Counted from the first letter of the stretch, positions 5,421 through 56,760 are shown. The stretch is DNA of 64,000 nt from Accumulibacter sp. (GCA_031266435.1 JAISAZ010000103.1:16119-80118); one strand, 5' to 3'. Numbers and translations are program-made. The notes: a model not told the origin generated them from the letters alone.

Positions 5421-5830
5421 GTACAGGTTGGTGGTGAGCGCATCATCAGGGATCAGATGTCAGGTATCAGGGATCAGATGAAAACCGATTTCAACCGCGA
5501 AAGGCGCGAAAGTCTTTGTAGGGGCACGGCACGCCGTGCCCTATCGGCGGTATAGGTTGGGGTGAGCGAAGCGATGCCCAACGTTCCGTGTTCGCATGAA
5601 TGATGGAGAGGGCAGGGGAATTCTCCATGTAGGGGCGAACCTATGTGTTCGCCCAATATCCGGGCAGACACGCAGGTCTGCCCCTACGTGGCAATCGACG
5701 ACGCGCGGACGGTTGACGCCGCTTTTGCGGGAATGATGCCGATCCTGAAATGGCTTGCGCTTCGCGCAAGCGAGATGTTGGGCATCGCTCCGCTCACCCC
5801 AACCTATACCAACCCATACCCACCCCAACG
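5421..5830. repeat. Mosaic repeat cluster C1
   Basis: Heptamer array (ATCAGGG/ATCAGAT); nonamer arm AACCGCGAAAGGCGCGAAAG 5493-5512; REP-B GTAGGGGCACGGCACGCCGTGCCC 5518-5541; REP-A 5551-5582 (+) and 5777-5808 (-); inverted REP-C pair 5629-5654 / 5662-5687; hairpin GCTTGCGCTTCGCGCAAGC. Confidence 0.9.
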
Positions 5831-5908
5831 TATGCGACCATCAAGCGGGAATGCCACAATGAGAATTGTGAGACAATCGAAAAAATTTTTTTCCGACAAG
5901 GAATCAAA

Positions 5909-8557
5909 ATGAATGCGTGCAAGCCGGAACCATCCGCCGAGCAGCCCGACGCGATGAAGCGCGCTACGGCGTTTTTTGAGTCGGGTGAATTCGCCGAAGC
6001 CGAGCGCCTCGCGCGAGAAATCTGCGCCGCGAACCCGACTGACGAAAACGCCCTGCGCTTTCTCGCGCAGGCCGTCTACGAGCAGGGGCGTATTGAGGAA
6101 GCGGTCGGCTTGATCGGGGACGTGTTGAAACTCAACCCGATGCGCTCGGCGTACCACAACGACCTCGGCGCGATGCTCGCGGCCTTGAAGCGCTGGCCCG
6201 AGGCCGAAGCCGCGTACCGGATGGCGAAGGTTCTCGACCCGCACAATCCCGACGCGCCTTTCAATTTGGCGATTGCGCTTTCGAACCAGAACAAAAACGA
6301 CGCGGCCTTGCGCGAGCTCGAGTCGCTCGAAAATGTACAGCCTGATTTCGCCGATGCCTACGCCTTGCGCGGGAAAATTCTGTCGAGTGAGGGGCGTTAC
6401 GACGAAGCCGCCGACGTGTTTTCAAAAGCGATCGCACACGGACTTGATAATGCTGACGTTTATGCTGACCTCGGAGTCGCGCTTTTTCGCGCTGGACGAC
6501 GCGAAGAAGCGCTCGAGACCTTGTTCGAATCGGGAAAAATCGACCCCGAAAGCGCGATGGCGAATTGCTGTATGGGTGAGTTGATGCACGAAAAAGGAGA
6601 TATCGCAAAAGCGCGGTGCTACTTTGAAAAGGCGCTCGAAATCGACCCAAGCCTTGCTGTGGTGCGCAATAATCTCGGTGTGATTCTCCAGAAGGAAGGC
6701 GATTTTTTGCGCGCCGAGGCCGAGTTTTCGCGCGCGATCGAGTTCGACCCTGAAATGGCTGCTGCCTACGTCAACCTCGGCAACTGCCAGAATCGCCGGG
6801 GCAGGCGCGAAGACGCGCGCGCGTCTTTTCAACGCGCAATCGAGATTGATCCATACGACCCTGGAACGTGGAATAACCTTGCGTTGCTATTTTACGGCGA
6901 ACGGCGTTTCGACAAAGCCGAGGCGACGTTTCAACAAGCGCTATCGGTGAGGCCCGATTCGCCGCTGGTAAAATTCAACTACGGTGTGATGCGGCTTTCG
7001 CTCGGCGACTTCGAGGCCGGGTGGGAGGAATACGAGCAACGCCACGCGCTCAAAGCGAGAGAAAACAAAGGCGTTCACCCCTCGCACTCGAAATTCGATT
7101 GCCCTGAATGGGACGGTGAGCCACTTGATGGCAAGGGTCTTTTCGTCGACACCGAGCAGGGTTTGGGCGACAGCATCCAGTTCGTCCGCTACTTCGGCAC
7201 GTTGCGCGCGCGCTACCCGTCCGCGCGCCTTTTTTTCAGGTGTTATTTTCACTTGGCGCGCCTTTTTTTGCTCGTCGCGGTGAAATACGGCGTCACGATC
7301 ATTTGGAATACAGACCAATACGAGGAGAATAAAGGGGATTGGGATTTTTTTGTTCCCCTGATGTCGATTCCCAGGCATCTCGCGGGGACAAGGTTGACGA
7401 TCCCTGCCGACGTGCCGTATTTAGGCCTGCCCGACGCCTTCATCTCACAATGGGGTGCACGTCTCTCCACGCTCGTCGGAAAAAAGGTAGGCGTCGTCTG
7501 GTCGGGGAGCGAAGGCTACGTGGCAGCGGGTCGCCGCAATATGACGATATCGCAGTTTGCGCCGCTCTTCGACATCCCCGGAATATCGTGGGTCTCGTTG
7601 CAAAAACTGCCGAAAGGCGACGCGCGCGGAGAGATCGACACCGAAGGTCTTTCGACGAAGATTTTCGACCCGATGCCTGAGGTGAAAGACTTCGCCGATA
7701 CGGCGGCGATCGTCGCGAACCTCGACCTCGTGATCAGCGTCGATACGGCGGTGCTCCACCTCGCTGGCGCGATGGGCGTCGCGGTCTGGCTCATGAACCG
7801 CTTCGATACCGACTGGCGCTGGGAGTACGACTCTTCGGACAGCCTCTGGTACCCGACGATGCGAATCTTCCGCCAGAAGACTTCCGGTGAATGGGCGCCG
7901 GTCGTCACCGAGGTAGCCGACGCTTTGAAAAAATGGGTCGACGCCGACGCGAGCGAGGCGACGTGGGTGCTCATCGAGCCGCCGAGAGCGGATGCGGCGT
8001 TCAACGTCGCGCTCGCGCTCTCGAAAGAAGGGAAGGCCGACGAAGCCCTGCGCGTCCTCGATATCCTGGAAAAAAAATACCCAGAATTCGCGTGGCAATT
8101 CGCACTGCGCGGGAAGATCTATCGTGCGGAAAAACGCGCCGAGGATGCCGTCGAAGCGCTGTCGTGCGCGGTCGCGCTCGGGATCGAAGCGCCGAGCGTC
8201 GTCACGCAGCTCGGTCTGGCGCTTGCGGACGCCGGCCTGGACGACGAGGCGTTCAAAGTGCTCGCCGAATCGGGCAAGGCCGATGCCGAAGACCCTGCCG
8301 TCAATCATTGCCTCGGCGTTCTCCTGAGGAGGCGCGGTAAAACCGACGAGGCGCGCCGCTATTTTGAAATGGCCATCGTCGCGGACCCGACCTTTACGGA
8401 AGCCCTCGAAGCTCTGGGCGAACTCCTGTGCGCGGCGGGCGATGTGGCGGCGAGTGATGCCGCATTCGCGCGCAGGGACGAAGTTAGCGCGAGCCGCGCG
8501 CGTTATCGCGCGGCGCTCGAAGACTACGCGGCGGCGATTTTCGGCCTCGTGCGCTGA
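5909..8557 (+). CDS. TPR-repeat glycosyltransferase (GT9/heptosyltransferase-like catalytic domain)
   Basis: Many TPRs, then EQGLGDSIQF, VGVVWSG, WVSLQK, DFADTAAIVANLDLVISVDTAVLHLAGAMG, DWRW, WYPTMRIFRQ. Start moved to ATG 5909 because the upstream in-frame part is repeat-derived. Confidence 0.85.
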   Translation: MNACKPEPSAEQPDAMKRATAFFESGEFAEAERLAREICAANPTDENALRFLAQAVYEQGRIEEAVGLIGDVLKLNPMRSAYHNDLGAMLAALKRWPEAEAAYRMAKVLDPHNPDAPFNLAIALSNQNKNDAALRELESLENVQPDFADAYALRGKILSSEGRYDEAADVFSKAIAHGLDNADVYADLGVALFRAGRREEALETLFESGKIDPESAMANCCMGELMHEKGDIAKARCYFEKALEIDPSLAVVRNNLGVILQKEGDFLRAEAEFSRAIEFDPEMAAAYVNLGNCQNRRGRREDARASFQRAIEIDPYDPGTWNNLALLFYGERRFDKAEATFQQALSVRPDSPLVKFNYGVMRLSLGDFEAGWEEYEQRHALKARENKGVHPSHSKFDCPEWDGEPLDGKGLFVDTEQGLGDSIQFVRYFGTLRARYPSARLFFRCYFHLARLFLLVAVKYGVTIIWNTDQYEENKGDWDFFVPLMSIPRHLAGTRLTIPADVPYLGLPDAFISQWGARLSTLVGKKVGVVWSGSEGYVAAGRRNMTISQFAPLFDIPGISWVSLQKLPKGDARGEIDTEGLSTKIFDPMPEVKDFADTAAIVANLDLVISVDTAVLHLAGAMGVAVWLMNRFDTDWRWEYDSSDSLWYPTMRIFRQKTSGEWAPVVTEVADALKKWVDADASEATWVLIEPPRADAAFNVALALSKEGKADEALRVLDILEKKYPEFAWQFALRGKIYRAEKRAEDAVEALSCAVALGIEAPSVVTQLGLALADAGLDDEAFKVLAESGKADAEDPAVNHCLGVLLRRRGKTDEARRYFEMAIVADPTFTEALEALGELLCAAGDVAASDAAFARRDEVSASRARYRAALEDYAAAIFGLVR

Positions 8558-10989
8558 TGGGCATCGACGGTGTCGACCCTTTGCGCCGCGATAAAATCTC
8601 GCGTGCGCAGGCGCTGTTCGGCGAAGGCCTCGCGCGTTCGCGCGCAGGGCGTTTTGCCGAGGCGCGGGAATACTACGAACGCGGCTTGAAACTCTTCCCC
8701 GGTCAGCCCGACGCGGTCTTCCTGCTTGGGGAAACGCATTTCGAACTCGGGAACGCCGCCGAAGGCGAGCGCCTCGTCCGGCGCGCGATCGCCGCAAACC
8801 CGCGCGCCGACAACTACCGCCGCGCGTTTGCGACGCGGCTGTTCAAGGCCGGACGGCTCGACGAAGCGCGGGCGTTTTTTGAAGATGCCGCCCGCCTGAA
8901 CCCCTCCGAGCCGGCGAATCTCTCCGGGCTGGCAAGCGTTCTCGAAGGTGTTGGTCGCTTTGCCGACGCGATTGCCGTATGGCTTCGACTGCTCGAACGC
9001 GCGCCGGCCTCATTGGAAGCGCTCGCCCGCCTTTCGCGCCTGTTCGTCGCGGAGAATCGCGTCCCCGAAGCTTTTGCCATGATTGAGCGCTGGATGAATG
9101 TCGCATCGAACGCTTCGGATGCTTCAGCCTACGCCTTGCGCGCCGAGCTTTACGAGAGCGTTGGGAACGCCACCGCCGCGCTGGCCGATTACGCCGACGC
9201 CGCCGCGCGCGCGCCGGATGACGCGAGCACCCACGCGAAGTACGCGCTGGCGCTCGCAAAGGCCGGAGACGACGACGCGGCGCTCGCGCATTTCGACGCA
9301 TCGGTTCGCCTCGAACCCCGTAACGCGCTTTTGCACTTCAACCGGGGCGTCGCGTACGCGCGCGCTGGCGTCCGCGACCAAGCCGTGTCGGCTTACGAGA
9401 CGGCGCTCGGACTTCTCACACTCTCGACGGATTTGCCACTGGCGTCGAATACCATGCTCAATTTGGCGAATCTCTATTCCGACCTCGATCGTTGTGACGA
9501 AGCGCGGGCGCTTTATACGCGAATCCTCGCGGCTGAACCCAAAAACGCTGCGGCGCTTTTCAACCTCGGTATGCTGGATCTCGCCGCTGGGCACAAGAAG
9601 GACGCCGTCAAGACGCTCGAACGCGCGCTCGCCGCCGACCCCGACGGCGAATCGGCTGGTTTGGTCGCGGCGCATCTCCTCTTCCAGAAAATGCATCTCT
9701 GCGAATGGGACGGACTGGAGGATTTGACCCGCCGCGTGATTCACGCGGTCGAGAACGATACGGCCGACGTTCCGCCTTTCATCACGCTGTCGATCCCCGG
9801 AACGACGCCGTGTCTCCAGCGGCGATGCGCCGCGAACCACAGTGCCCGACTGAAAAAGCCTGGAATGAGCGTGTTTAGTGAAACGAGGCGCTGTGCCGCG
9901 CCGCGCGAACGCCTGCGCGTCGGCTATCTTTCGTCCTACTTCAAAGCACACGCGATGCCGTGGCTCACAGTCGAAACGCTCGAAGCGCACGACCGCGCGC
10001 GCTTTGAAATCTTCGCGCTTTCTTATGGTGTCGATGACGCTAGTCCGATGCGCACGCGCGTTGTGAACGCCGTCGAGCACTTCGTCGAACTCGCGGGCTT
10101 GCCCGACCGCGACGCCGTCGCGCGCATCGCCGCGCTTGAACTCGACGCGATCGTCGACTGGAATGGTTATACCGAAGGGAATTGCAGCCGCTGGTTGCAA
10201 TATCGCCTCGCGCCGCGCCAGATCAGTTGGATCGGTTATCCCGGAACGCTCGACGCGCCGTGGGTCGAGTTTTTGATCGCCGACGTGCACGTCGCGCCGC
10301 CGGAAAACGACTCGTTGTTCAGCGAGCGCGTCGTTCGCCTGCCGGGTTGCTATTTGCCGAACTGCCGCGCGCGCGAATGCGCGCCCGTACCGACGCGCGC
10401 GGAAGAGGGCTTGCCCGAAGGCGCGCTCGTTCTCTGCTCGTTCAACCAGACGGTCAAGATTACGCCGGAGATGTTTGCGCTTTGGATCGGCCTCCTCGGT
10501 GAATTCCCCGAAACGGTTCTTTGGCTCTGGGCGTCGAACCGCTGGGCAGAGGCTTCGCTTCGCCGAGTCGCCGAAGCCGCGGGACTCGTGCCCTCACGCG
10601 TCGTTTTTGCCGAAAGCCGACCGCAGGCCGAACACCTCGCGCGCTTGCCGCTCGCCGACCTCGCGCTCGACACCTTCCCGTGCAACGGGCATACGACAAG
10701 CTCCGACGCGCTCTGGGCCGGCGTCCCCGTCGTGACGCTCGAAGGCGAGGCTTTCGCCTCGCGCGTCGCGGGTAGCCTGCTACACGCCGCCGGATTGCCC
10801 GAACTCGTCGCGCCCGACACGGCGGCGTATCGCGCGATCGTCCGGCGCTTTTGCCGCGATCAAGGCTTCAGGGACGGCGTCTCGAACAAGGCGCGCGCGC
10901 TGCGCGAGACTTCCGACCTCTTCGATAGCGCGAAGTTCGCGCGCAAGCTCGAAGCGTGCTTCGAGGAGATTTGCTTGGGGGAGGGGTGA
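8557..10989 (+). CDS. TPR O-linked GlcNAc transferase-like protein (GT41/SPINDLY family)
   Basis: TPRs, then RLRVGYLSS.F..H and DLALDTFPCNGHTTSSDALWAGVPVVTLEGEAFASRVAGSLL; TGATG overlap with the upstream gene. Confidence 0.9.
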   Translation: MGIDGVDPLRRDKISRAQALFGEGLARSRAGRFAEAREYYERGLKLFPGQPDAVFLLGETHFELGNAAEGERLVRRAIAANPRADNYRRAFATRLFKAGRLDEARAFFEDAARLNPSEPANLSGLASVLEGVGRFADAIAVWLRLLERAPASLEALARLSRLFVAENRVPEAFAMIERWMNVASNASDASAYALRAELYESVGNATAALADYADAAARAPDDASTHAKYALALAKAGDDDAALAHFDASVRLEPRNALLHFNRGVAYARAGVRDQAVSAYETALGLLTLSTDLPLASNTMLNLANLYSDLDRCDEARALYTRILAAEPKNAAALFNLGMLDLAAGHKKDAVKTLERALAADPDGESAGLVAAHLLFQKMHLCEWDGLEDLTRRVIHAVENDTADVPPFITLSIPGTTPCLQRRCAANHSARLKKPGMSVFSETRRCAAPRERLRVGYLSSYFKAHAMPWLTVETLEAHDRARFEIFALSYGVDDASPMRTRVVNAVEHFVELAGLPDRDAVARIAALELDAIVDWNGYTEGNCSRWLQYRLAPRQISWIGYPGTLDAPWVEFLIADVHVAPPENDSLFSERVVRLPGCYLPNCRARECAPVPTRAEEGLPEGALVLCSFNQTVKITPEMFALWIGLLGEFPETVLWLWASNRWAEASLRRVAEAAGLVPSRVVFAESRPQAEHLARLPLADLALDTFPCNGHTTSSDALWAGVPVVTLEGEAFASRVAGSLLHAAGLPELVAPDTAAYRAIVRRFCRDQGFRDGVSNKARALRETSDLFDSAKFARKLEACFEEICLGEG

Positions 10990-11535
10990 TTCAGGAGACA
11001 GGAGACAGAGGACAGAAGACAGAGGACAGAAGACAGATCAGTTAGCGGCGGCTTCGCCACCGGAGAAGAGCTTTTTCAACCCGCCTCGGAAACGTTGGGC
11101 ATCGCTTCGCTCACCCCAACCTATGGCATCTCCGCTCCGTTCTCGGCGGTATAGGTTGGGCTGCGGCGAAGCAAAGCCCAACGTTCCGTATGCGCATATC
11201 ATGTATCAGATGTCAGGAATCTGGAATCAGATGAAAACCGATCGGTGTATCAAAGATTCTTCTCCGGCCGAAGGCCGCAAGAATTCTCTGTCTCCCGACC
11301 TCTGTCTCCTGTCTCCTGAACCAACCCGCCTCGCGATCGTTGGGCTTCGCTCCGTTCTCGGCGGTATAGGTTGGTGGTGAGCGAAGCGAACCCCAACGAT
11401 TCCGTATGCGTATATCAGGGATCAGGAATCAGAGGACAGGAATCAGATCAGTCAGCGGCGGCTTCGCCACCGGTAAGCGCTTTTTCACGCCGCCCCGGAA
11501 ATGTTGGGCATCGCTGCGCTCTGCCCAACCTATGC
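10990..11535. repeat. Mosaic repeat cluster C2
   Basis: Heptamer arrays (GACAGAG/GACAGAA) start right after the stop codon; module F CAGATCAGTYAGCGGCGGCTTCGCCACCGG at 11034 and 11444; REP-A at 11094(-), 11150(+), 11365(+), 11503(-); GGCCGAAGGCC at 11266; inverted heptamers 11286-11319. Confidence 0.9.
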
Positions 11536-11618
11536 GAGTTATGGGGGCGGACTGGCGGGTTATAGGGGCTTGAAGAGAAGAAATATCTGTGTTAAAAACC
11601 GAAGGAAAGGAGAGCGAA

Positions 11619-11822
11619 ATGGCTGACGAAAGTACGACCGTTGAAAACGAAAGACTCATTCACATCCGACGAATCGACGCGGAAATATCGAAGATATTTA
11701 CCGAAATCGAAGAAATGCGCGCCGAAACGATGAAAATCCAAACAGAATCAAAATGGCATCCTTTTGTCGTAGTTGCCGGAATCTTCGGCGCCGCCATCGC
11801 CATCGTTAAACTTTTTGTCTGA
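11619..11822 (+). CDS. Small hypothetical protein (67 aa), coiled coil plus C-terminal membrane anchor
   Basis: GGAG RBS then ATG 11619; heptad-like RIDAEISKIFTEIEEMRAETMKIQTE followed by hydrophobic WHPFVVVAGIFGAAIAIVKLFV. Confidence 0.7.
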   Translation: MADESTTVENERLIHIRRIDAEISKIFTEIEEMRAETMKIQTESKWHPFVVVAGIFGAAIAIVKLFV

Positions 11823-12005
11823 TTCCTTTTCCAGTTCGCCACGGTCGACTTCGTCTTGCCGTAAAGATGTGGGGGACGTGGCGAACCCCAAACCGTACGC
11901 TTTTTCATGCCGCCCCGCGATTGTTGGGGTTCGCTCCGTTCTTGGCGGTATAGGTTGGGCTGCGGCGAAGCAAAGCCCAACGTTCCGCATACGCATGAAT
12001 GATGG
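11822..12005. repeat. Mosaic repeat cluster C2b (truncated inverted MITE arm + REP-A)
   Basis: 11822-11863 ATTCCTTTTCCAGTTCGCCACGGTCGACTTCGTCTTGCCGTA matches one arm of the 1611/54127 element in opposite orientation; half REP-A at 11923, full REP-A at 11949-11981. Confidence 0.85.
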
Positions 12006-12056
12006 TGGGTAGGGGGGCGGGGTACACGATAATCACTCGGTGTGGGAGGGTAGAAA

Positions 12057-13655: not shown

Positions 13656-13853
13656 GGTTTTTCCTCTTTTCGCTCATCCTGCACATGGCCGCATGTGAGG
13701 GCATGGATTGTCAAAGAATCGCAGAAAGGGATAGCAAGATTGCCGACACGCGGCGATGGCGCTTATCCGAATAGACGAGATTTTACCCGATGAGGAGTCG
13801 GTTTCGTCATCCGGCGCTTTTGGCGCGATCAAGGCTTCAGGGATGTTGGGGGT

Positions 13854-13906
13854 TTTGGTCAATAAATTGACCAAACCCCTATATTTTGGTTAAAATTTTG
13901 ACCAAA
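13854..13906 (+). promoter_or_regulatory. Twin 22-bp palindromic operators overlapping a sigma-70-type promoter of the XRE gene
   Basis: O1 TTTGGTCAAT-AA-ATTGACCAAA (13854-13875, perfect 10-bp arms); O2 TTTGGTTAAA-AT-TTTGACCAAA (13885-13906, one mismatch); -35 TTGACC 13867-13872, -10 TAAAAT 13891-13896, ATG at 13906. Confidence 0.75.
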
Positions 13907-14565
13907 TGAACACTTCGGGAATCAGCGCCGTTCTGGAACGTCAGTTGCTGTTGCAACTGGGCGACCGGCTCAAGCGTCTGCGGAAAGCGCAGGGGCTTGG
14001 TACGGTCGAGATGGCCGCGAGCGCCGGGATTTCCCGCAACACCTTGCGGGCCGTCGAAACCGGCGACCCTTCTCCCTCGATCGGCGCCTATTTGCGCGTA
14101 ATGTCGCTCCTCGGCGTCAGCGGCGAGTTGGCCTTGTTGGCGGGAGATACCCTGCAGCCGCCGCCGGATTCCGAAGCGGCGCGATCCCGACGCGCTATGC
14201 CGCTCGTCAAGGTGCGCGTTTCGGCGGACGAGGCACGACACGCGCTTCAGGACACGCGGAGTCTGGCGCTTCACGAGGAAGCCGTGCGGCTGGTCAAGAC
14301 CGATCCGGCTCTGGTTTTACAGGCACAGGACACCACCAAGCGCTGGCTTGCCACCGGTGACCCGCGTTCCGCAAGCCTGTGGCGCGAATGGCAGAATATC
14401 TTGGGCGTGGGGTCTTGGCGCAAGGCGCTCGCTCGTACGCGGCGCGCTCAACAGTTGCGGCAGGCCTCGCCGCTCGTTACTGTCCTTCCAGAAGAAGTAC
14501 GTCGTCGCATCCTGAATCAGGTGAATGAACTCAAAAAAGGGGTCGACATCACGGGGTTTGCATAG
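13906..14565 (+). CDS. XRE-family helix-turn-helix protein with an additional C-terminal domain
   Basis: LGDRLKRLRKAQGL..VEMAASAGISRNTLRAVETGDPSPSIGAYLRVMSLLG HTH; C-terminal SLALH...W...LRQASPL domain. Confidence 0.85.
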   Translation: MNTSGISAVLERQLLLQLGDRLKRLRKAQGLGTVEMAASAGISRNTLRAVETGDPSPSIGAYLRVMSLLGVSGELALLAGDTLQPPPDSEAARSRRAMPLVKVRVSADEARHALQDTRSLALHEEAVRLVKTDPALVLQAQDTTKRWLATGDPRSASLWREWQNILGVGSWRKALARTRRAQQLRQASPLVTVLPEEVRRRILNQVNELKKGVDITGFA

Positions 14566-14595
14566 CTTGTGAGGCGTAGCGAACCCCAAGCTACG
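14561..14595. repeat. REP-A variant hairpin overlapping the XRE stop codon
   Basis: TAGCTTG (14563-14569) / CAAGCTA (14587-14593) stem with loop TGAGGCGTAGCGAACCC resembling REP-A; reads GTAGCTTGGGG... on the minus strand. Confidence 0.6.
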
Positions 14596-14605
14596 CGGAC
14601 CCCGT

Positions 14606-16457: not shown

Positions 16458-16463
16458 AAGCGT

Positions 16464-23803: not shown

Positions 23804-25052
23804 TTACGTCCGCAACTTCATGCGCTCTGGCGGAATGGCATAGCAAATCACCTCATCCCCCCAATTCGTGTAAGCGCGCAAAACAAATTTGTAATCGGGA
23901 ACGATGTGTTTTATGAATAATGGTAGATCGTAAAGGTCGTACGGGTGATGATAGACAGAAATGGCAAGGACGGGGCGGTCTCTGCTGATTAATTCGGATG
24001 CGCCGTGTAATGCGTGTGCTTCGAAGCCTTGGATGTCCATTTTTATAAGCGTTACCGGATTTTCGCCGCTCAGGCGGTTGTCCAAGGGAATACATGGTAT
24101 TTTGCCCCCCCCCCCCCCTAACATCGCTACGCTCTTCAAGGGTAACGAAGGAAGAAGACCCCATATCCTCTGGATTAAGATATACGGTCCCATCCTCTGA
24201 ACCTACCGCGCTGTGCAAAACAGTAACCTTAGCCTGGATGTTGTTGGGCAAAGTTTCTAATGTCTCACGCAATCCCTTGATGTTTCGCTCGTCGGGTTCG
24301 ATGGCGATATATTTTTTGAAAGAACGAGCGGAATCCATCTTTAGGTATTGCAAAAGCGTATCTCCAGTGAATGCGCCGCAATCGACGAAAACATCGTTCT
24401 CTATGCTCGTGTATACATCATCAAAATATTGAAGCTCAGGATCGCTGGCTGGTATGAAAGCGTCCGAATTTAGAAGATAGCGCTTCAATACGGACGTAAA
24501 GACTGCCTTGGAATGGAAATCGCAGAAAAGATCATAGGCTTGCTTGGTTTTGACCCTGTTCCTTTGAGATGCAAATATGTCGGTTTTGCGATAGAAATCA
24601 TAATTTTTTGTTTTTTTGGAACCATATGGAAGGAAGTCGCCCAATTGCCTAAAATTTATGATTATGTTCTTTGCGTCATGAGGAAAAAATTGTGCAATTT
24701 CAGCATACGATTTTTCAGCGCGGTCATTGAGTTCGCAAATGACAAAGAGCGCTCGCGGCGCCTTGAGCAAAGCTTCGCGTAGGGGGAGGGTATCCTGCTC
24801 GTCACGTGGGCTGTCCGAAAGAGAGCAATGCGTTGAAATTTTCGGTTCATGGCTTTCATCGCTCACCGTTATTGGAATTTCAGGGAGGGTCTCCTTCATG
24901 AGAGAAAATATAACGTTTGAGTGGTAATTGGCCGGGTAAAGAATCACGCCAGACTTACTTTTCCACTCGTCGCCATATTTTTGTTTGGTGAAACGCGATG
25001 AGTCTAACATAGTGTTGTCATAAATTTTGAAAAGTTGCTCTATATTGCACAT
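23804..25052 (-). pseudogene. FkbM-family methyltransferase, frameshifted at a G14 tract (probable phase-variable OFF state)
   Basis: Frame 1 has FVDCGAFTGDT..IAIEPDERN..AVG; after the tract the FkbM C-terminus (LIKMDIQGFE..ALHGA..RPVLAISVYH) is in another frame. G13 or G16 would give one ~415-aa ORF. Confidence 0.88.
24105..24118 (-). repeat. Homopolymer tract C14 (G14 on coding strand)
   Basis: Direct count TTTG-C14-TAAC; the longest homopolymer I noticed in the window. Confidence 0.9.
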
Positions 25053-25056
25053 GACT

Positions 25057-26598
25057 TTACCTTCCGGGTGTATGCATTCTGTCGTGAAGGGGCAGGGTTT
25101 CCTTGAGCGTAAAGCGGTCGATTTTTCCGTTGACGTTACGCGGCATCTCGCTTAGGTGGATGTACTCTGTTGGAAGCATGTAACGGGGGAGGGTTTCTCC
25201 AAGGCGAAGCCTGAGCGATTTTTCATCGAGAGTTACGCGCGCTTCATAAAAGAGGACGATTTTTTTATCCCTGTAAAAAACGCAGCAATTCCTTACTTCG
25301 GCAACCGCGCTTATAGCGGCATGTTCAATTTCCGCAAGCTCAATTCGGTATCCTTGGTGCTTTATCAGAGTATCCTTGCGCCCTTTGAATACGATTTCGC
25401 CGTAGTCATTCACGTATACGATATCGCCGGTCCTGTAGATTATCTCGGGATAGCATCCGTTCAAAGGGTTCTGAACGAAGACCTCGGCTGTTTTTTCGGG
25501 AGCGTTGTAGTAACCAAGGGCGAGTGAAGACCCCAAAACGCACAGTTCTCCCTCTTCACCGGTTTTTGCCAGTTCGTTCGATCCGTTCAGAATGAGAATG
25601 TCGACGTTCTTTCTCGGAAATCCTATCGGGATCGGCTCGTCATTTGCAAGCTCACGTTCTATTTTGTAATAGGTGCAGTCGACGGTTATTTCCGTCGGAC
25701 CGTACAGGTTGACAAAAATGGCGGTGGGGAAGGCGGCGCGCCAGTAATTAAATTGCCGCGTTGGAAAGACTTCACCCGCGAACCAGATCGTTTTCAAAGG
25801 GGGGGGCACTGCTTCGTCGAATAGCTTCATATTTGCGATATTGACCATGATGGTCGGCACCCAAAAAATGAAACTGACACTGTGCGTTTTCAGGAGTCCG
25901 AGTATTTTTACCGGAAAGGCTGAAAGAGACGGAGGGATCAGGAGCAATGAGACACCGTGTATGAAAAGAAGGCATATTTCGTATACATAGTGATCGAAGA
26001 CGACGGGAGAAAGGACTCCAAGAACCTCTTCATGCGAGAGCGAGAAGGTGTCTATCGCCCAGCGTGTATAGTCCAGAAAACCGCGCTGATGCAAAACAAC
26101 GCCCTTCGGTGTCCCCGTCGATCCCGATGTATTGATGATGCAGAACATTTTGGAATCCGCCGTACAAGAGACGATGTTCGAGGATTCTTCCATCGCATCT
26201 GGTTGTGCGAGGATTTCTTCCATGCAAAGAATGATTTGCTCTTTCAAACGAATTTTAAATATATGATCATATAATTTCCGCGTCGTCAATATCAGCGGTG
26301 GTGCAACGTTTTCCAGAATCCTGCGTATTCGTTCGTGTGGAATGCTTACATCCAGATTCATGAAAGCATTTCCGCTGTAAATGATACCCAAGTCGGCGAC
26401 GACAGTTTCTGCGGATTTGGACAGATAAACGGCGATGGGTCTATTGGAAACTTCTGTATTGGACAAAGCGTGAGAAATGGCGAGAGCTTTTTTTCTGAGT
26501 TCTCGGAAAGTAACGTGCCGCTCACCGTCGATAATCGCCGTCTTCTCTGGAAATGTGGCGACTGTTTCTTCAAAGTGTTCAATAATATTCGTTTTCAT
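25057..26598 (-). CDS. Stand-alone adenylation (AMP-binding) enzyme, DltA/NRPS A-domain-like
   Basis: IINTSGSTGTPKGV, NLYGPTE, YRTGD, GRKDTLIKHQGYRIELAEIE, NGKIDR. Confidence 0.92.
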   Translation of the reverse strand: MKTNIIEHFEETVATFPEKTAIIDGERHVTFRELRKKALAISHALSNTEVSNRPIAVYLSKSAETVVADLGIIYSGNAFMNLDVSIPHERIRRILENVAPPLILTTRKLYDHIFKIRLKEQIILCMEEILAQPDAMEESSNIVSCTADSKMFCIINTSGSTGTPKGVVLHQRGFLDYTRWAIDTFSLSHEEVLGVLSPVVFDHYVYEICLLFIHGVSLLLIPPSLSAFPVKILGLLKTHSVSFIFWVPTIMVNIANMKLFDEAVPPPLKTIWFAGEVFPTRQFNYWRAAFPTAIFVNLYGPTEITVDCTYYKIERELANDEPIPIGFPRKNVDILILNGSNELAKTGEEGELCVLGSSLALGYYNAPEKTAEVFVQNPLNGCYPEIIYRTGDIVYVNDYGEIVFKGRKDTLIKHQGYRIELAEIEHAAISAVAEVRNCCVFYRDKKIVLFYEARVTLDEKSLRLRLGETLPRYMLPTEYIHLSEMPRNVNGKIDRFTLKETLPLHDRMHTPGR

Positions 26599-26676
26599 GG
26601 TGTGCGAATATTTAAAGTCGCGTGTTGTGGGAGCAGGCCAATTGCTTTTGGGAATGTGTTACTCCAGTATTGAAGT

Positions 26677-27543
26677 TTATGCCATACGGATTTCATGCTT
26701 TATAAATTTATATACCATATGGTAGATGAACACGCCGTCAAGTGTCTGATTGAGTAGCCGAGAGTATTTCATCAGGCGCTTGTTCGTCGCATCACGCCAG
26801 CCGTAAAACCGGGATGGCGGGATAGCGAGCCGCCGGATATGGCGATGTAGGAAATAACCGAATTTTACGGAGAGGAACTCGTCCCGATAACCCTTTCGCG
26901 TTATGTCGTAGATGTCGGAGTATTGACCGTTCTGTATGCTGAAGTAGAGGAGTGCGCCAATCATTTTGCCTCTTCTAATGACGAGAATCTGGCGCGCCTC
27001 GATGTTTTTTATGATTTCCGAAAATTCTGGGATGTTGTCTCCAAATAAATCGAATTCCTCGAAAAGCATCTCGGAAATTTCTTCGGCATCACTGACGCAC
27101 GCATAGCCGACCTGCTCTTCTTGTTGGCTTTTCAGCAACTGCTGTACCAAGGGCGGATTGACGTCAGTACGAATTCTTGCCAAGCGCTTGCAGAGCACGA
27201 AGCCGGACTCATCAAAAACCGTAGCGATTTCACCTGTAGAGGGTTCTTTTCCGGTTATCGAAGCGCGTAGCGCGAACGTATCGTCGTAAACCGACAAAAA
27301 ATTCTTTAGGTCGTCACGTAATGAATCCATGCTTGCCGAGACGTAAAGGAAGTCATAGTAGGAATCGTGGTAAGGAATCAATAAAAAAAGCGAAGCTTCA
27401 AGAGAATGGAATAGGCAGTGCCTACTTTCAAGGAGTTGGCGGAGTTTATCCGCGCTCAAAAAAATATTGCTCAGCGGACGGCGATATTTTTCTTTCAACG
27501 CGTCGGCGCGGCCAATGAAATCAAGAATCGACGCTGGTCGCAT
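26677..27543 (-). CDS. Hypothetical protein, possible GNAT-fold acyltransferase
   Basis: C-terminal half VGYACVSDAEEISEML...ILVIRR...TRKGYR resembles GNAT motifs; lies between the adenylation enzyme and an SDR. Confidence 0.5.
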   Translation of the reverse strand: MRPASILDFIGRADALKEKYRRPLSNIFLSADKLRQLLESRHCLFHSLEASLFLLIPYHDSYYDFLYVSASMDSLRDDLKNFLSVYDDTFALRASITGKEPSTGEIATVFDESGFVLCKRLARIRTDVNPPLVQQLLKSQQEEQVGYACVSDAEEISEMLFEEFDLFGDNIPEFSEIIKNIEARQILVIRRGKMIGALLYFSIQNGQYSDIYDITRKGYRDEFLSVKFGYFLHRHIRRLAIPPSRFYGWRDATNKRLMKYSRLLNQTLDGVFIYHMVYKFIKHEIRMA

Positions 27544-27585
27544 ATCCCTCCTTCTCGGCGGTTATTGACATTGAGCTTTGTTGGG

Positions 27586-28362
27586 TTAGCACACGGCACC
27601 AGCATTGATGGAAAGCGTTGCACCTGTAATGGATTTTGCTGCGTTGGAAAGCAGATAGATGGCCAGTTTTGCGACGTCGTTCGGGTCGATAAGGCCGAGC
27701 GGTTGGTAGCCTGTTGATTTGATGTGCTCGTTGAAGTCGCCGGTGATCTCGTCGATTTCGGCCAGCATTTCAGTTTTGACGAAGGCGGGGCGTACTGCGT
27801 TGATCGTCATGTTCTTCGCCGCGAGCTCTGTGCCAAGGCAACGAACGGCGGCCTCCATGGCGGCTTTTGAAGCCGCGTACGCGGTAAGGTATTTCTCATG
27901 CGTCACGCTTGCCAGAGATGAGATGCAGACAACGCGCATACTTTGCGCCTTTGTTTTTTTTCGGACGAGGCAACGTATGAATTCTATAAACGGATAAAAA
28001 TTTATTTGCATGAATTCATGCGTCGTTGCGTAAGTGTTGTCGCGTAGCCTGATTTTCCCCATCTTTCCTGCGGAAAATATAAGCCCGTCGATGTGATTAT
28101 ATTCTGTTTGCATTGTTGTCACTACCATTTCGATATCTGAAATATCAGCGATGTCGAAAGGGAGGATGGTGTGCTTACCCCGTGGCATCAACTGAAGAGT
28201 TTCTTCAAGCGCCTGTTTATGTCTCGCTACGAGAATCACATTGGCGCCTTGCGCGCCAAGTTCAAGGCAGACGCTTCGCCCTATCCCTGAGGATGCGCCG
28301 ACGACGAGATAGTTTTTGCCAGAATATTCGCCGTTCATTTTCAAGACGTGATGAAGTTTCAT
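27586..28362 (-). CDS. Short-chain dehydrogenase/reductase (FabG-like)
   Basis: LVVGASSGIG, YAASKAA, INAVRPAFVKT; ATGA overlap with the upstream KAS III. Confidence 0.9.
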   Translation of the reverse strand: MKLHHVLKMNGEYSGKNYLVVGASSGIGRSVCLELGAQGANVILVARHKQALEETLQLMPRGKHTILPFDIADISDIEMVVTTMQTEYNHIDGLIFSAGKMGKIRLRDNTYATTHEFMQINFYPFIEFIRCLVRKKTKAQSMRVVCISSLASVTHEKYLTAYAASKAAMEAAVRCLGTELAAKNMTINAVRPAFVKTEMLAEIDEITGDFNEHIKSTGYQPLGLIDPNDVAKLAIYLLSNAAKSITGATLSINAGAVC

Positions 28363-34925: not shown

Positions 34926-35150
34926 TTCAGAGGACAGATGTCAGGGATCAGAGGACAGAGGACAGAGGACAGAAGATAGAGGACAGAATTGTGGTCTGTG
35001 TTCAGTATTCAGATGTCGCATGGCTTGCCTCCTTCAGATTATAGACAACTGATTACAGAGGCCGAAGGCCGCTCTGTCGTCTGTCCTTTCCATCATTCCA
35101 GCGTTTGCGGAACGTTGGGGTTCGCTGCGCTCACCACCAACCTATGCATA
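34926..35150. repeat. Mosaic repeat cluster C4 (heptamer array, 83-bp core, inverted heptamers, REP-A)
   Basis: (CAGAGGA)n 34928-34987, core 34989-35071 homologous to inverted 55293-55374, CTCTGTC 35072-35087, REP-A(-) 35114-35145. Confidence 0.88.
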
Positions 35151-38856: not shown

Positions 38857-38857
38857 A

Positions 38858-50857: not shown

Positions 50858-50860
50858 ACG

Positions 50861-52847: not shown

Positions 52848-52870
52848 GCTTTTTTGCAGAGGAGAAAACG

Positions 52871-54037
52871 ATGTTCGAAATTATCGACAAGGAAGATCCG
52901 GGGACCGTCATCCGGGTGATCGGCGCCGGAGGCGCGGGCGGAAACGCGATCGACCACATGATCCGCGAGAACGTCCAGGGCGTCGGTTTCGTCGCGGTGA
53001 ATACCGACGCGCAGGCGCTCAAGCGTTCGAAGGCCGAAGTGAAACTCCAGCTCGGAAAGACCGGGCGCGGCGCCGGTGCGAAACCCGACGTCGGTCGCAC
53101 CGCCGCGATCGAGGCGCGCGAGGAGATCGCACAGGCGATCAAGGGCGCGCATATGGTCTTCATCACGGCAGGAATGGGCGGCGGGACGGGGACGGGCGCC
53201 GCACCCGTCATCGCCGAACTCGCGCGCGAAATGGGAATCCTCACGGTCGCCGTCGTGACGAAGCCTTTCGATTTCGAGGGGACGCGCAGCAAGGTCGCCG
53301 AGGCGGGGATCGCCGAACTGCAAAAGAACGTCGATTCGCTGATCGTCATCCTCAACGAGAAGCTGATGGAAGTCCTCGAAGACGACGTTTCGCTCGACGA
53401 CGCGTTCAAGGCCGCCGACAGCGTCCTGCGGAATGCCGTCGGCGGGATCGCCGAAATCATCACGTGTCCGGGACTCATCAACGTCGACTTCGAAGACGTG
53501 CGGACGGTCATGGGTGAAATGGGGATGGCAATGATGGGGTCGGCGACGGCGTCCGGTGTCGACCGCGCGCGCGTCGCCGCCGAGCAAGCCGTCGCGTCCC
53601 CGCTGCTCGAAGGGATCAACCTCCTCGGTGCGAAAGGCGTCCTCGTCAACATTACGGCGAGCCGCGCGCTGAAGCTGAAGGAAGTCTATGACGTCATGGG
53701 CACCGTGCGCGAATTCGCCGCCGAGGACGCGCATATCATCCACGGCGCCGTCTATGACGAGTCAATGGGCGACGACATTCGCGTCACGGTCGTGGCGACC
53801 GGACTCGGTCAGCAGGTGAAAAGGCAGCCGCTCGAAGTCATCCGCGCGGCGCCGATCCAGGCGACCGGGACCGACGGCGGCTTCGGCGCGGCGGGGCCGG
53901 CGGGTGTCGATTACAGCCAGCTCGACCGGGAGCCGGCGGTCGTGCGCAGAGGGCGTAGCCAGCAGGTCGAAGCGCTGGCCAACAGTGGCGTCGACCGTTA
54001 CGATATCCCGGCGTTTTTACGCAAACAGGCCGATTGA
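52871..54037 (+). CDS. ftsZ: Cell division protein FtsZ
   Basis: GAGGAGGNA, AGMGGGTGTG, INVDFEDV, C-terminal DIPAFLRKQAD. Confidence 0.98.
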   Translation: MFEIIDKEDPGTVIRVIGAGGAGGNAIDHMIRENVQGVGFVAVNTDAQALKRSKAEVKLQLGKTGRGAGAKPDVGRTAAIEAREEIAQAIKGAHMVFITAGMGGGTGTGAAPVIAELAREMGILTVAVVTKPFDFEGTRSKVAEAGIAELQKNVDSLIVILNEKLMEVLEDDVSLDDAFKAADSVLRNAVGGIAEIITCPGLINVDFEDVRTVMGEMGMAMMGSATASGVDRARVAAEQAVASPLLEGINLLGAKGVLVNITASRALKLKEVYDVMGTVREFAAEDAHIIHGAVYDESMGDDIRVTVVATGLGQQVKRQPLEVIRAAPIQATGTDGGFGAAGPAGVDYSQLDREPAVVRRGRSQQVEALANSGVDRYDIPAFLRKQAD

Positions 54038-54126
54038 CGCGCAGTTACGCCGAAGGATAAACCGACCCGGCGCGATTGCGCGGGGTTTCGGAGGGTATTC
54101 GCACGTTCGGCGCGGAAGGCGGCGTG

Positions 54127-54226
54127 ATTCCTTTCCAGTTCATTCATGCCGAGAAGACGAGCCGCAGACAGTACAAACAGTACGGCAAGGCGAGTCGACA
54201 ATGGAATGGATGAACTGGAAATGGAA
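54127..54226. repeat. ~100-bp MITE/REP-like element (copy 2)
   Basis: Same core and terminal inverted repeats as 1611-1713; between ftsZ and lpxC. Confidence 0.85.
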
Positions 54227-54309
54227 GGAGAAGCGATTGCGGAAAGGGAAGATTGTTAAAACCTCTGCCATGTTACAATCTTCCTCTTTCAGTATTCTCC
54301 GATCGCAGT

Positions 54310-55251
54310 ATGTTGAAGCAGCGCACATTGAAGTCTTCCGTCCGCGCCTCCGGCGTCGGTCTGCATTCCGGAGCGAGGGTCACGATGCTCCTGCGTCCGG
54401 CCCCGCCGGATACCGGAATTGTTTTTCGGCGCATCGACGCGAACCCCGCCGTCGACCTTCCCGCGGACGCGATGAAGGTCGGCGATACGCGCCTGTGTTC
54501 GTGCCTTGAAGTCGATTCTCCCCAGGGGAAGTTCCGCGTCGGAACGATAGAGCATTTGATGTCGGCTTTTTCCGGCATGGGGGTCGACAACGCCTACGTC
54601 GACCTCGACGCGGCGGAACTGCCGATCCTCGACGGTTCGGCTTCGCCCTTCGTCTTCCTGATCCAGTCGGTGGGCGTCGAAGAACAGCCGGTTCCCCGAA
54701 AGTTCATCCGCGTCAAGCGGAGCGTTTCGGTCCGCGAGTGCGACGATTCGGGCGAAAAATGGGCGCGCCTCGACCCCTTCGACGGCTTCAAACTCACATT
54801 TTCGATCGTTTTCAACCACCCGGCAATCGACCGCACGGGACAAGAGCTTACGATCGACTTCGGCGAGCACTCCTACGCCCGTGAAATCGCGCGCGCGCGG
54901 ACTTTCGGCTTCATGCAGGAAGTCGAATGGCTGCACGAAAACGGGCTGGCGCAGGGCGGCGGCCTCGAAAACGCCGTCGTCCTCGACGAATTCCACGTCC
55001 TGAACGGAGACGGTCTGCGTTACGGCGACGAATTCGTGAAGCACAAGGCGCTCGACGCGATCGGCGACCTTTATCTGCTCGGCCACCCCCTGCTCGCGGC
55101 CTTTTCGGCGCACAAATCGGGTCACGCCTTGAACAACCTGCTCGCGCGCGAACTTCTCGCGCAGCCCGACGCCTGGGAATACGCGAGCTTCGAAGACGCC
55201 GCGTCGATCCCCGGCGGTGTCGCGCGCTGGCAAACGCAGCTGGCGTTCTGA
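54310..55251 (+). CDS. lpxC: UDP-3-O-acyl-GlcNAc deacetylase LpxC
   Basis: [46 protein letters not shown]. Confidence 0.97.
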
Positions 55252-55518
55252 TCAGGGATCAGAGGACAGAGGACAGAGGACAGAGGACAGAACGGTCTTC
55301 GACCTTTGTAGTCAGTTGCCTGTAATCAGAAGGAGCGTCCCATCCGACATCTGACGACTGAAAACTGGCCACAAAGCGAGCGCTCAGTCTTCTATCTTCT
55401 GTCTTCTGTCTTCAGTCCTCTGATCCCCGTCCTCTGATCCCTGTCTCCTGATACCTGAAATGGCTTGCGCTTCGCGCAAGCGAGGTGTTGGGCATCGCTG
55501 CGCTCACCCCAACCTATA
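55250..55518. repeat. Mosaic repeat cluster C5
   Basis: Heptamer array directly after the lpxC stop, 82-bp core 55293-55374, inverted heptamers 55385-55460, 64-bp hairpin + REP-A block 55454-55517. Confidence 0.9.
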
Positions 55519-55980
55519 CCTGATTTGATGGCGCAATTGCTTTGTCGTGAGCCTTCGCCCTGCCGAATCATCGGCATAATACATAAGCGCCTCGTCCGAT
55601 TTCAAAGGCAACAGTTCGATGAAGTGCGACCAACTCAATTGTTGCGCCAGCGGCGCAACAATCTCGATATCGGGAAATCTTCTGGAAAACTGTATCATGC
55701 GCCGGATATTCGTATAATCGAAAGAGCTTCCATATCGTCTTTTCAATTGCTGTGCCAAAGACGCAACAATCCTTTTTCCGTATTCCGCGCGTTCACCGTC
55801 GAGCAAAAATGCCTCGACAAACCGCCCGATTTCCCAATACATCAGCGTAATTTCGCGATTCGCGCAGGCTCCGGCGCGGGATTTGCGATTTTCGATAATC
55901 GTCGAAACACGCTCAAATAGAGCAGCCTCCTCTGCCGATGTTGTTTCTCTCGAAACAAGCCGGCCCTTTTCCTTATTCAT
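55504..55980 (-). pseudogene. DUF1016/YhcG-family protein, N-terminal domain only, truncated by a REP-A repeat
   Basis: MYWEIG..RAEYGK.IV..LA..L...YG.SF...N.RRM.QF..LSWSHFIELL motifs; the frame enters REP-A at ...HQIR|YRLG* and stops inside it; no C-terminal PD-(D/E)xK domain follows. Confidence 0.85.
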
Positions 55981-56109
55981 TCGTTTCCTTGTTTTTCTTG
56001 TCTGGGATCGTTTCCGTCGTACCCGAAATACCTCACACAAGCGACACACCGCGCTTGAAGTGCAAACCCTGGCTTTATCAAGGGAGGAATGGGGATATCA
56101 TACACTCAC

Positions 56110-56760
56110 ATCAGGAGACGGGAGACAGGAGACAGGAGACAGATGAAAACCGATCGGGAAGAACCGGTATGGGGGAGTGGGTTCTTGTAGGGGCACGGCA
56201 TGCCGTGCCCATCGGCGGTATGGCTTGGGCTGAACGGGTGTGAAGCCCAACGATTTCGCATACGTATGAATGACGGAACAAGATGGCAGGAATCAGATAA
56301 AAACCGATTTCAACCGCGAAAGGCGCGAAAGACGCGAAAGTGAAGTGTTTGCATAAATTTTCGCGCTTTTCGCGTGTTTCGTGGTTCTTGTTTCCTGATC
56401 GGGCACGGCACGCCGTGCCCCTACGCGCGAATCGACGACGCGCGGATGCTTGACGCCTCTTTTGCGGGAATGATGCCGAATCCTGAAATGGCTTGCGCTT
56501 CGCGCAAGCGAGGTGTTGGGCATCGCTGCGCTCACCCCAACCTATGCTTGGTGGGGTTTCGTCACTCCGGCGGCGAAGCCGCCGCTGACCGATCTGATTC
56601 CTGTCTCCTGATTCCTGATACCTGAAATGGCTTGCGCTTCGCGCAAGCGAGATGTTGGGCATCGCTCCGCTCACCCCAACCTATGCGTAGAGGGTGGGGT
56701 TTCGTCACTTCGGCGGCGAAGCCGCCGCTACCTTCTCTGTCTCCTGATCCCTGATCCCTG
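56110..56760. repeat. Mosaic repeat cluster C6 (largest)
   Basis: Heptamers, REP-B(+) 56187-56210, degenerate REP-A 56219-56251, inverted nonamer element 56312-56386, REP-B(-) 56401-56424, block 56430-56545 shared with 5693-5807, module F(-) 56567-56596, second hairpin + REP-A block 56621-56684, inverted heptamers to 56760. Confidence 0.9.

Follow-up and report, generated by a model that had tools for sequence, protein, structure and literature searches.

Repetitive extragenic palindromic (REP) sequences, together with the REP-associated tyrosine transposases (RAYTs), are the best-studied long-lived, vertically inherited 'domesticated' mobile DNA of bacteria, and how REPs spread and come to cluster is still unsettled. 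For the bacterial interspersed mosaic elements (BIMEs) of Escherichia coli a Y1/HUH transposase (RAYT, also called TnpA-REP) is encoded at a single distant locus (PMC3333891, PMC8266576). Here, we have analysed a 64-kb stretch of chromosomal DNA (JAISAZ010000103.1:16119-80118 of assembly GCA_031266435.1), referred to below as the window, in which eight loci are built from three REP families (REP-A, REP-B and REP-C), two further hairpins (E and F), a linker, nonamer arrays and heptamer arrays. Rather than representing a novel type of element, the system elaborates, in a lineage-specific manner, on the REP/BIME clusters already described for E. coli and Pseudomonas, and is richer than these. We favour, with a probability of roughly 0.55, the explanation that the loci are BIME-like REP clusters whose RAYT is encoded elsewhere, and whose composite units were copied as blocks and then amplified and rearranged.

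Several REP families with the tag GTAG in one genome, mixed clusters of variable composition, and REPs inserted in host palindromes have all been described, and P. putida and P. fluorescens harbour hundreds of 'double' ends in which a degenerate GTAG unit is joined to an unrelated stem-loop (PMC3733652). Given these precedents, the claim of a first-pass annotation of the window, that the mosaics have a richer grammar than BIMEs, holds as a difference of degree only.

The mosaics have in common with the BIMEs of E. coli that they are intergenic clusters of tagged hairpins with recurrent non-REP motifs in a fixed syntax, often in tandem and at high copy number. They differ in that at least three unrelated REP families are combined in one cluster, and in their head-to-tail REP-B/REP-A pairs, heptamer arrays, nonamer palindrome of ~110 bp and REP-A tag ATAG. 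BIMEs of E. coli, too, reportedly combine REP variants with several fixed extra motifs, as Gilson and co-workers are said to have described in 1991. The short tandemly repeated repetitive (STRR) sequences of cyanobacteria, reportedly described by Mazel and co-workers in 1990, are said to be intergenic tandem arrays of 7-bp units that sometimes lie near REP-like palindromes. They resemble the present heptamer arrays as tandem 7-bp repeats of intergenic DNA, whereas here the unit is RWCAGRR, and the arrays are imperfect and short, with 3-9 units each, and make up the ends of the composites. New here are the accessory set (RWCAGRR heptamers, the CGCGAAA nonamer palindrome, and the E and F hairpins), the incorporation of almost all REPs into composites, the head-to-tail REP-B/REP-A arrangement and the fixed ATAG.

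Several points link the mosaics to the GTAG REP superfamily and REPtrons (Di Nocera et al. 2013; Nunvar et al. 2010): the definition of that group, GTAG plus stem-loop, applies to REP-B and REP-C, the pair of REP-A1 and E resembles the double-hairpin ends, and relatives of REP-A flank RAYT genes; the difference is that nearly every REP copy here is embedded in a composite unit. A long hairpin can be formed by a pair of inverted REP-A copies, as in REPINs (Bertels and Rainey 2011), but the spacer is at least 168 nt and itself a mosaic of other repeats, and many units are tandem or head-to-tail. The intergenic mosaic elements of neisserial genomes (NIMEs), reported as Neisseria-specific, are likewise long intergenic multi-family arrays which vary in length and content between relatives and adjoin variable genes (PMC1797815); in contrast to them, the present mosaics are devoid of the dRS3 motif and are punctuated by REP hairpins and heptamer arrays. 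Sequence strings used as queries of the literature matched primers only.

Modules, hairpins and composite units

All parts named in the first-pass annotation were found where it had placed them, at numbers far above the chance expectation, taken as the mean over dinucleotide-preserving shuffles of the window. The exact REP-A consensus, with up to 3 mismatches, is present in six copies (0.00 expected), and a degenerate REP-A pattern gave 18 strand-matches (0.02 expected). The linker occurs five times (0.00), REP-B at three sites (0.00), and hairpins E and F in four exact copies each (0.01 and 0.02, respectively), F with an extra, chance-like one-mismatch match at 1139. Tandem Repeats Finder located heptamer arrays at 5445, 10992, 11302, 11414, 34928, 55260, 55384-55457, 56112, 56594 and 56743. 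A Hamming scan yielded 11 full REP-A copies, which fall into three subtypes according to their inner stems, as well as two that are degenerate and three that are half copies, thus modifying the initial count of 12 full copies and one degenerate. REP-C is a single inverted pair of two different GTAG hairpins. Rfam gave no match anywhere in the window at gathering thresholds, and thus no family for any module.

The eight loci (Table 1) sum to 2272 nt, 99% of which lies outside mapped genes, and they constitute 32% of the window's 6988 intergenic nt. They fill 7 of the 25 intergenic gaps of at least 60 nt, including every gap longer than 590 nt. The locus initially delimited as 11822-12005 is a real mosaic, but its start is near 11895. 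A mostly intergenic location and a high copy number, the latter based on estimates of copies per genome, are both characteristic of REPs.

A syntax parse of 21 clusters, taken from the window and from eight related contigs (nine sources in all), showed that the modules are joined in a regular manner. E adjoins REP-A1 in 12/12 cases, in a single relative orientation and with a 5-nt gap; F adjoins a heptamer array in 12/13 and the linker a nonamer arm in 12/14; a segment H follows F in 6/6, and CATTTCAGG plus heptamers follow E in 9/12. Three composite units of ~140-190 bp were recognised: (i) REP-A1 - E - heptamers - F - H, tandem at 56468-56760 with a period of 139 bp; (ii) REP-B - ATCGGCGG - REP-A - tail - heptamers - linker - nonamer arm, in which REP-B and REP-A stand head-to-tail, and which is tandem in the related contigs L044 and L124 (period ~160 bp, read by eye from the sequence); and (iii) the full nonamer palindrome with heptamers on both ends. 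Thus, REPs and recurrent extra-REP motifs follow a regular and often tandem syntax, as in BIMEs, whereas REP orientation does not alternate regularly, given the head-to-tail pairs and the one-way REP-A1 of the 139-bp units.

Most of the variation in neighbours is seen behind H (followed by REP-B, REP-A1 or REP-A2), behind the nonamer arm or the CCGAT end of the linker, and within heptamer arrays; the joints that vary lie at REP ends, in heptamer arrays and at the end of the linker. Alignments between loci show common blocks of 150-360 bp with 72-88% identity, and the copied unit is therefore the composite rather than the 20-30 nt module. The free interchange of modules in order and orientation that had been proposed is accordingly overstated, and the half copies of REP-A at 11339 and 11923 belong to two copies of one longer block, derive from one ancestral junction and are not independent events.

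The scheme that we propose would start with three cosmopolitan tagged-hairpin families (REP-A with ATAG, REP-B and REP-C with GTAG) being fused to lineage-specific accessory pieces, i.e. the E and F hairpins, the linker, the nonamer palindrome and the RWCAGRR arrays, to give a few composites. A RAYT-type Y1/HUH transposase from elsewhere in the genome would recognise a folded hairpin with its 5' tag on single-stranded DNA (ssDNA), cut beside the hairpin and rejoin the ends; DNA between two cognate hairpins would therefore be copied as a block and land beside other REPs. Tandem duplication would subsequently enlarge and vary the clusters, as would slippage or recombination within the heptamer arrays and at the ends of hairpins. 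We infer both that a RAYT acts on the modules in the present lineage and that the heptamer arrays serve as recombination joints.

The REP-A, REP-B and REP-C modules are imperfect palindromes of 20-40 nt, as expected of REPs, and the predicted ssDNA folds of REP-A1, REP-A2, REP-A3, REP-B, REP-C1 and REP-C2 range from -5.0 to -10.2 kcal/mol. REP-B, REP-C1, REP-C2 and E are predicted to form G+C-rich stems of 8 bp (-8.7 to -10.2 kcal/mol). REP-B and both REP-C hairpins carry an unpaired 5' GTAG (GTAGGGGC... at 5518, 5629, 5687 (-), 56187 and 56424 (-)) and are, as first annotated, canonical REPs, while REP-A has ATAG in its place. In the predicted REP-A fold, GTTGG(G) and CCCAAC form the outer of two stems, and the apex is the element GCGNAGC, reportedly found by Hirao and colleagues to be the sequence of an unusually stable DNA mini-hairpin.

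The stem was further supported by an alignment of 85 distinct REP-A-type sequences from the present lineage and about 115 other loci, in which the inner pairs 12:26 (CG36/GC16/UA8/AU4/UG6) and 13:25 (UA46/AU6/CG4) show compensatory changes. The covariation score was 0.117 as compared with 0.036 after shuffling (0/500 shuffles as high), and the pairing was lost when the partner column was slid; since the search pattern fixed the outer stem and the apical element, this evidence concerns the inner REP-A pairs only.

Larger structures are predicted as well. The nonamer arrays form both arms of a ~110-nt palindrome (fold z = -4.4), the heptamer arrays at 55248-55460 form another (z = -5.9), and 5515-5812 folds into a single long hairpin on two inverted REP-A1 copies (z = -9.6), whose 47-nt arms (5549-5595 with 5764-5810) are 85% complementary. 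The inverted REP-A pairs in the window have mosaic spacers of at least 168 nt, and simple doublets were seen only in other genomes. A G-C-closed GAA/TTC triloop is common to many of the small hairpins (GCGAAGC, GCGC-TTC-GCGC, GGC-TTC-GCC, GGCC-GAA-GGCC) and recurs in otherwise unrelated modules (11266-11279, 35062-35075, E, F and the REP-A loops).

Inverted heptamer arrays delimit several of the units (10980-11024 with 11286-11330, 87% complementarity; 55253-55292 with 55404-55443, 85%), for which long hairpins are predicted. This is what would be expected if the composites were miniature inverted-repeat transposable elements (MITEs), i.e. non-autonomous derivatives of a conventional DDE insertion sequence (IS) with the arrays as terminal inverted repeats. 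We regard such an origin as quite improbable: unlike defined transposon ends, the arrays vary in unit number and sequence, no target-site duplication was seen by eye beside the 55251-55457 element, no IS with heptamer-array ends occurs in ~130 kb of lineage sequence, and most units end in REP hairpins rather than in heptamers. Two other classes of repeat were rejected by inspection. In integron attC sites the core sites have the reverse order of the GTTGGG...CCCAAC stems, which here lie on both strands, and no integrase was found; evenly spaced identical repeats, as in CRISPR arrays, are absent.

Table 1. Positions of the mosaic loci, their parts, and the gene fragment enclosed by two of them.
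Feature	Position	Strand	Parts or context
Mosaic edge cut by window start	1-25	-	linker 1-15 (-), then heptamer units
Mosaic, divergent fliC/TPR-gene intergenic region	5421-5830		
Left part			half REP-A2 5425-5440; heptamers 5445-5479; linker 5475-5489; nonamer arm 5490-5512
Middle			REP-B 5518-5541 (+); REP-A1 5551-5582 (+), tail to 5606; REP-C1 5629-5654 (+); REP-C2 5662-5687 (-)
Right part			spacer G 5697-5740; E 5753-5771; REP-A1 5777-5808 (-); decamer CCAACCCATA x2.7 at 5799-5825
Mosaic 3' of TPR/GT41 gene	10990-11535		
Left part			heptamers 10992-11037; F 11045-11061; REP-A1 11094-11125 (-); REP-A3 11150-11182 (+)
Middle			linker 11228-11242; GGCCGAAGGCC mini-hairpin 11266-11279; inverted heptamers 11286-11319; half REP-A 11339-11354
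Right part			REP-A2 11365-11397 (+); heptamers 11414-11447; F 11455-11471; REP-A1 11503-11534 (-, 3 mismatches)
Short mosaic	11895-12005	+	half REP-A 11923-11938; REP-A3 11949-11981 (+) with tail; copy of the 11322-11412 junction block
Lone degenerate REP-A-like hairpin	14561-14595	+	CATAGCTTG...CAAGCTACG; between convergent genes
Mosaic between GGDEF gene and next gene	34926-35150		
Left part			heptamers 34928-34987 (+); GGCCGAAGGCC mini-hairpin ~35062-35075
Right part			short inverted heptamers; REP-A2 35114-35145 (-)
Mosaic after lpxC	55250-55518		
Left part			heptamer-array palindrome, ~200 bp (55251-55292 plus, 55384-55457 minus)
Right part			E 55463-55481; REP-A1 55487-55518 (-)
Largest mosaic	56110-56760		replaces natural end of dciA
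Left part			heptamers 56110-56142; linker 56140-56154; REP-B 56187-56210 (+); degenerate REP-A 56213-56245
Middle			linker 56294-56308; nonamer palindrome 56309-56385; REP-B 56401-56424 (-); spacer G 56434-56477
139-bp unit 1			E 56491-56509; REP-A1 56515-56546 (-); H 56550-56565; F 56569-56585; heptamers 56594-56625
139-bp unit 2, tandem			E 56630-56648; REP-A1 56654-56685 (-); H 56693-56708; F 56712-56728; heptamers 56733-56760
REP-A1 (n = 7)	5553, 5777, 11094, 11503, 55487, 56515, 56654	+, -, -, -, -, -, -	inner stem GGGGTGA...GATGCCC
REP-A2 (n = 2)	11367, 35114	+, -	inner stem GGTGGTGA...GAACCCC
REP-A3 (n = 2)	11152, 11951	+, +	inner stem GGGCTGCG...AAAGCCC
REP-A, degenerate (n = 2)	56213, 14563		
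REP-A, half (n = 3)	5425, 11339, 11923		
Truncated DUF1016/YhcG-like gene	55504-56049	-	N domain only; flanked by two mosaics; open reading frame ends inside REP-A1

The REP-A tag and RAYT genes of other genomes

A REP-A pattern matched more than 119 loci in the genome collection, among them loci of Pseudomonas, Aeromonas, Lysobacterales, Ottowia, Sulfuricella, Competibacter, Desulfobulbus, Hyphomicrobium and several cyanobacteria; the pattern is one base too long for the main REP-A1 form, and from the present lineage it matched the A2 form only. In other genomes the relatives of REP-A are singletons or classic inverted doublets 20-50 bp apart. The tag differs consistently, being ATAG, preceded by T or C, in 31/31 copies of the present lineage and GTAG in 146/147 copies elsewhere, so that the ATAG noted at the outset represents a fixed, lineage-specific change. 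The lineage is therewith a natural experiment on the 5' tag, with GTAG for the superfamily in >100 genomes and a fixed ATAG here, and also a case of several cosmopolitan REP families being welded to lineage-specific pieces in composites.

Three RAYT genes of one clade (L069 at 2728-3440, L129 and L130, from three other genomes) are each flanked by GTAGGTTGGGC...CCCAAC hairpins, and the clade, which is 62-76% identical across Aeromonas, Desulfobacterales, Rhodocyclales and Thiobacillus, is thus associated with relatives of REP-A. Since the REP-A superfamily is RAYT-associated in other genomes, the mobilisation in trans suggested by the first-pass annotation is plausible; the RAYT of the lineage itself was not found, and mobilisation in trans therefore stays a matter of inference.

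The REP sequence GTAGGTTGG[CT]G[CG]TGAGCGNAGCGAAGCCCAAC is nearly identical in Pseudomonas, Aeromonas, Lysobacterales, Desulfobulbus, Hyphomicrobium and several cyanobacteria, and such conservation of a REP and its RAYT across taxa is unusual where a family is regarded as largely lineage-specific and transmitted vertically. In L129 an IS110-family transposase gene at 251-1216 adjoins the REP-flanked RAYT. The IS110-family member ISPpu9 is described as inserting into REPs in Pseudomonas putida (PMC12288879).

REP-B (GTAGGGGCACGGCRYGCCGTGCCC) is found verbatim in 59 IMG/VR stretches of 41-70% G+C, often as a full palindrome (GTAG...CTAC) and in a few contigs together with REP-C1-like hairpins; tblastn detected no RAYT in the 0.5 Mb of these REP-B-bearing contigs. 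The unit of E and REP-A1 had 0 matches in IMG/VR, which lends no support to a viral origin.

According to published assays, the tag is important for cleavage. In S. maltophilia TnpA-REP, a change at the first position of GTAG, the most tolerant one, lowers but does not abolish cleavage, and in E. coli TnpA-REP no GTAG mutation is tolerated (PMC8266576). An ATAG tag need therefore not be dead, as the S. maltophilia enzyme still cleaves first-position variants. We tentatively consider, as an unlikely extension, that the lineage has a RAYT whose specificity has shifted from GTAG to ATAG and which moves entire REP-A-bounded cassettes, with the mosaics, joined through their heptamer arrays, acting as recombination hot spots at the borders of variable segments. 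If true, REP-RAYT machinery would here underlie a system of the NIME type in a bacterium other than Neisseria.

Several results speak against BIME-like clusters served by a RAYT from elsewhere. No transposase or integrase domain was detected by Pfam in any main open reading frame (ORF) of the window, confirming the initial impression, and tblastn with E. coli RayT and the L069 RAYT gave no RAYT in the window or in ~65 kb of related contigs. Nor could the RAYT of the lineage be recognised by name among the 120 best homologues; two candidates, P0180 and P0244, were rejected as they come from other assemblies, and they brought the REP-flanked RAYTs to the three given above. The head-to-tail REP-B/REP-A pairs represent an arrangement that is rare among known REP dimers (PMC3733652), and no empty/filled site pair for a single unit was found in the relatives compared. 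With the strictness of E. coli TnpA-REP in mind, REP-A with ATAG could be a decaying family that now spreads by recombination only. Finally, the copy number was obtained from summed contig depths in the metagenome X1, where unique flanks have a depth of 8-21 and repeat bins sum to 90-5300 at >=99% identity (higher at 90%), i.e. 6-340x the single-copy depth and therefore tens to hundreds of copies per genome-equivalent, figures to which other genomes and multiple registers on the low-complexity arrays may contribute.

Relatives and segments bordered by mosaics

With repeats 6-340x deeper than unique sequence, with Logan contigs that break within every mosaic and with contigs of a related metagenome-assembled genome (MAG) that end in repeats, the order of the modules might be suspected to be a chimera of the short-read assembler. 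We consider this highly improbable, since many locus-specific junctions are matched at >=99% identity by unitigs of single-copy depth (8-21x in X1; junctions 55150-55347, 55381-55462, 56352-56509 and 56658-56900). The remaining internal order of the longest mosaic depends on the original assembly. Moreover, the same syntax is found in independent assemblies: besides the window, the system occurs with the same junctions in the NCBI MAG 'Accumulibacter sp. Gx485_bin129' (JAISDL01, GCA_031264825.1) and in contigs of JGI sample 3300042612. In addition, the borders between mosaics and gene flanks are common to X1 and X2, a second run.

Among the sequences searched, only the window, JAISDL01 and JGI 3300042612 contained E, F, the linker, the nonamers and the heptamers, parts that appear to be lineage-specific; they were not found beside the REP-A relatives at ~115 other loci, nor in IMG/VR. 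The module search in relatives that had been suggested thus separates widespread families (REP-A and REP-B) from pieces confined to the present lineage. REP-A2 with its GGTATAGG flank and a 28-mer of linker plus nonamer gave no match in the metagenome collection, a weak negative because JGI 3300042612, which has the system, is evidently not in that collection.

Orthologous sites were compared at two distances, as the first-pass annotation had recommended. In the relative L120 (GCA_907163075.1, 80% LpxC identity) the lpxC-dciA interval is ~190 bp long and contains no module, as compared with 1.3 kb in the window. A closer relative in run X2, with flanking genes ~3-10% different from the window, has mosaic borders in common at 34926, 56110-56139 and 56737-56760, and unrelated sequence left of 35158 and left of 55523, so that occupancy is not identical. 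This relative is also without 11564 to ~13900, the segment adjoining the 10990-12005 mosaics. That segment (a small ORF, an unknown gene and a DUF5131 gene) and 24000-28000, within the low-G+C part of the glycan/fatty-acyl island, have no X2 counterpart at >=85% identity, though neighbouring genes have one.

The truncated DUF1016/YhcG-like gene between two mosaics is absent at the orthologous site of L120. Between X1 and X2 the fragment differs at 6/617 positions (55523-56139) and the adjacent dciA at 66/664 (56737-57400), a contrast which would fit a recent exchange of the mosaic-bounded segment. The observations hint that REP clusters mark the borders of variable gene segments.

They also invite the explanation that the mosaics are NIME-like arrays which owe their origin and rearrangement to gene conversion and to recombination, homologous or site-specific, with no transposase dedicated to them, and which are retained next to variable gene segments because they favour the exchange of neighbouring DNA. 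The segments missing in X2 or L120, the ~99% identity of the DUF1016 fragment next to a dciA that is ~10% different, the two mosaic edges that differ between X1 and X2, the tandem duplication of arrays, and the half copies as copies of one rearrangement all agree with it, as does the comparable behaviour of the neisserial arrays (PMC1797815). On the other hand, the dRS3 motif (ATTCCCN8GGGAAT) gave 0 matches at <=1 mismatch, no recombinase gene lies nearby, recombination alone leaves hundreds of copies at unrelated intergenic sites unexplained, and three of the module families are typical RAYT substrates. We therefore judge this explanation, the main alternative, unlikely by itself. Recombination is compatible with RAYT-borne BIME-like clusters and may well be a second, later process on top of transposition.

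Genes have been affected by the mosaics. A PemK/MazF toxin gene in L124 (8985-9200) ends at profile position 54/109, where a heptamer array and F hairpin start; an ORF of 100 aa upstream may be its antitoxin. In the window, the DciA homology stops at residue 148 and the ORF runs on for 66 residues through the mosaic (56562-56762): the natural stop has been lost, a repeat-derived tail (DQGSGDREGS...IGWGERSDAQHLACAKRKPFQ...) has been gained, and the gene caller accepted a protein of 214 aa. In practical terms, such repeats break short-read assemblies and yield spurious or extended ORFs.

These truncations matter for the question whether the clusters reflect a selected function rather than mobility, with hairpins as stabilisers or terminators of transcript 3' ends and arrays as sites for nucleoid proteins. 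REPs and BIMEs are reported to have such roles in E. coli, most mosaics lie 3' of genes or between convergent genes, and the hairpin structure is kept by compensatory change. However, one mosaic occupies a divergent promoter region (5289-5908), genes are truncated by mosaics, and the orthologous site of L120 works without them. Intrinsic terminators were rejected, also to the detriment of this functional explanation, as no T-runs follow the hairpins and terminator-like sites are as frequent as expected (3 vs 3.3 and 12 vs 10.5). A selected function as the cause of clustering is thus improbable, and BIME-like clusters mobilised by a RAYT encoded elsewhere are preferred.

Gene content and host

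The gene content of the window is that of a flagellated Gram-negative bacterium. According to Pfam, flagellar genes (fliK-like, fliT, fliD, flaG and fliC) come first and are followed by two TPR/GT41 genes. Next are an island for glycan and fatty-acyl biosynthesis whose G+C is low in part (0.47-0.52 at 22-30 kb), a GGDEF gene, and the dcw cluster from mraZ to ftsZ, in which the identities of murE to ftsA were taken from synteny with L120. The last genes are lpxC, dciA, an M23 peptidase gene, secA, argJ and a SpoU methylase gene. Public sequencing runs containing the window sequence are exclusively termite-gut metagenomes, with no RNA run among them. Because LpxC is at most 80-81% identical to its best matches, proteins from Propionivibrio and Accumulibacter, the host is, judged from sequence, an undescribed and uncultured Rhodocyclaceae-like betaproteobacterium of the termite gut.

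At 826-929, the minus-strand fliK-like gene contains some 10 imperfect copies of a 9-nt unit in tandem (CTGCGCCGT), which probably code for a repetitive linker.

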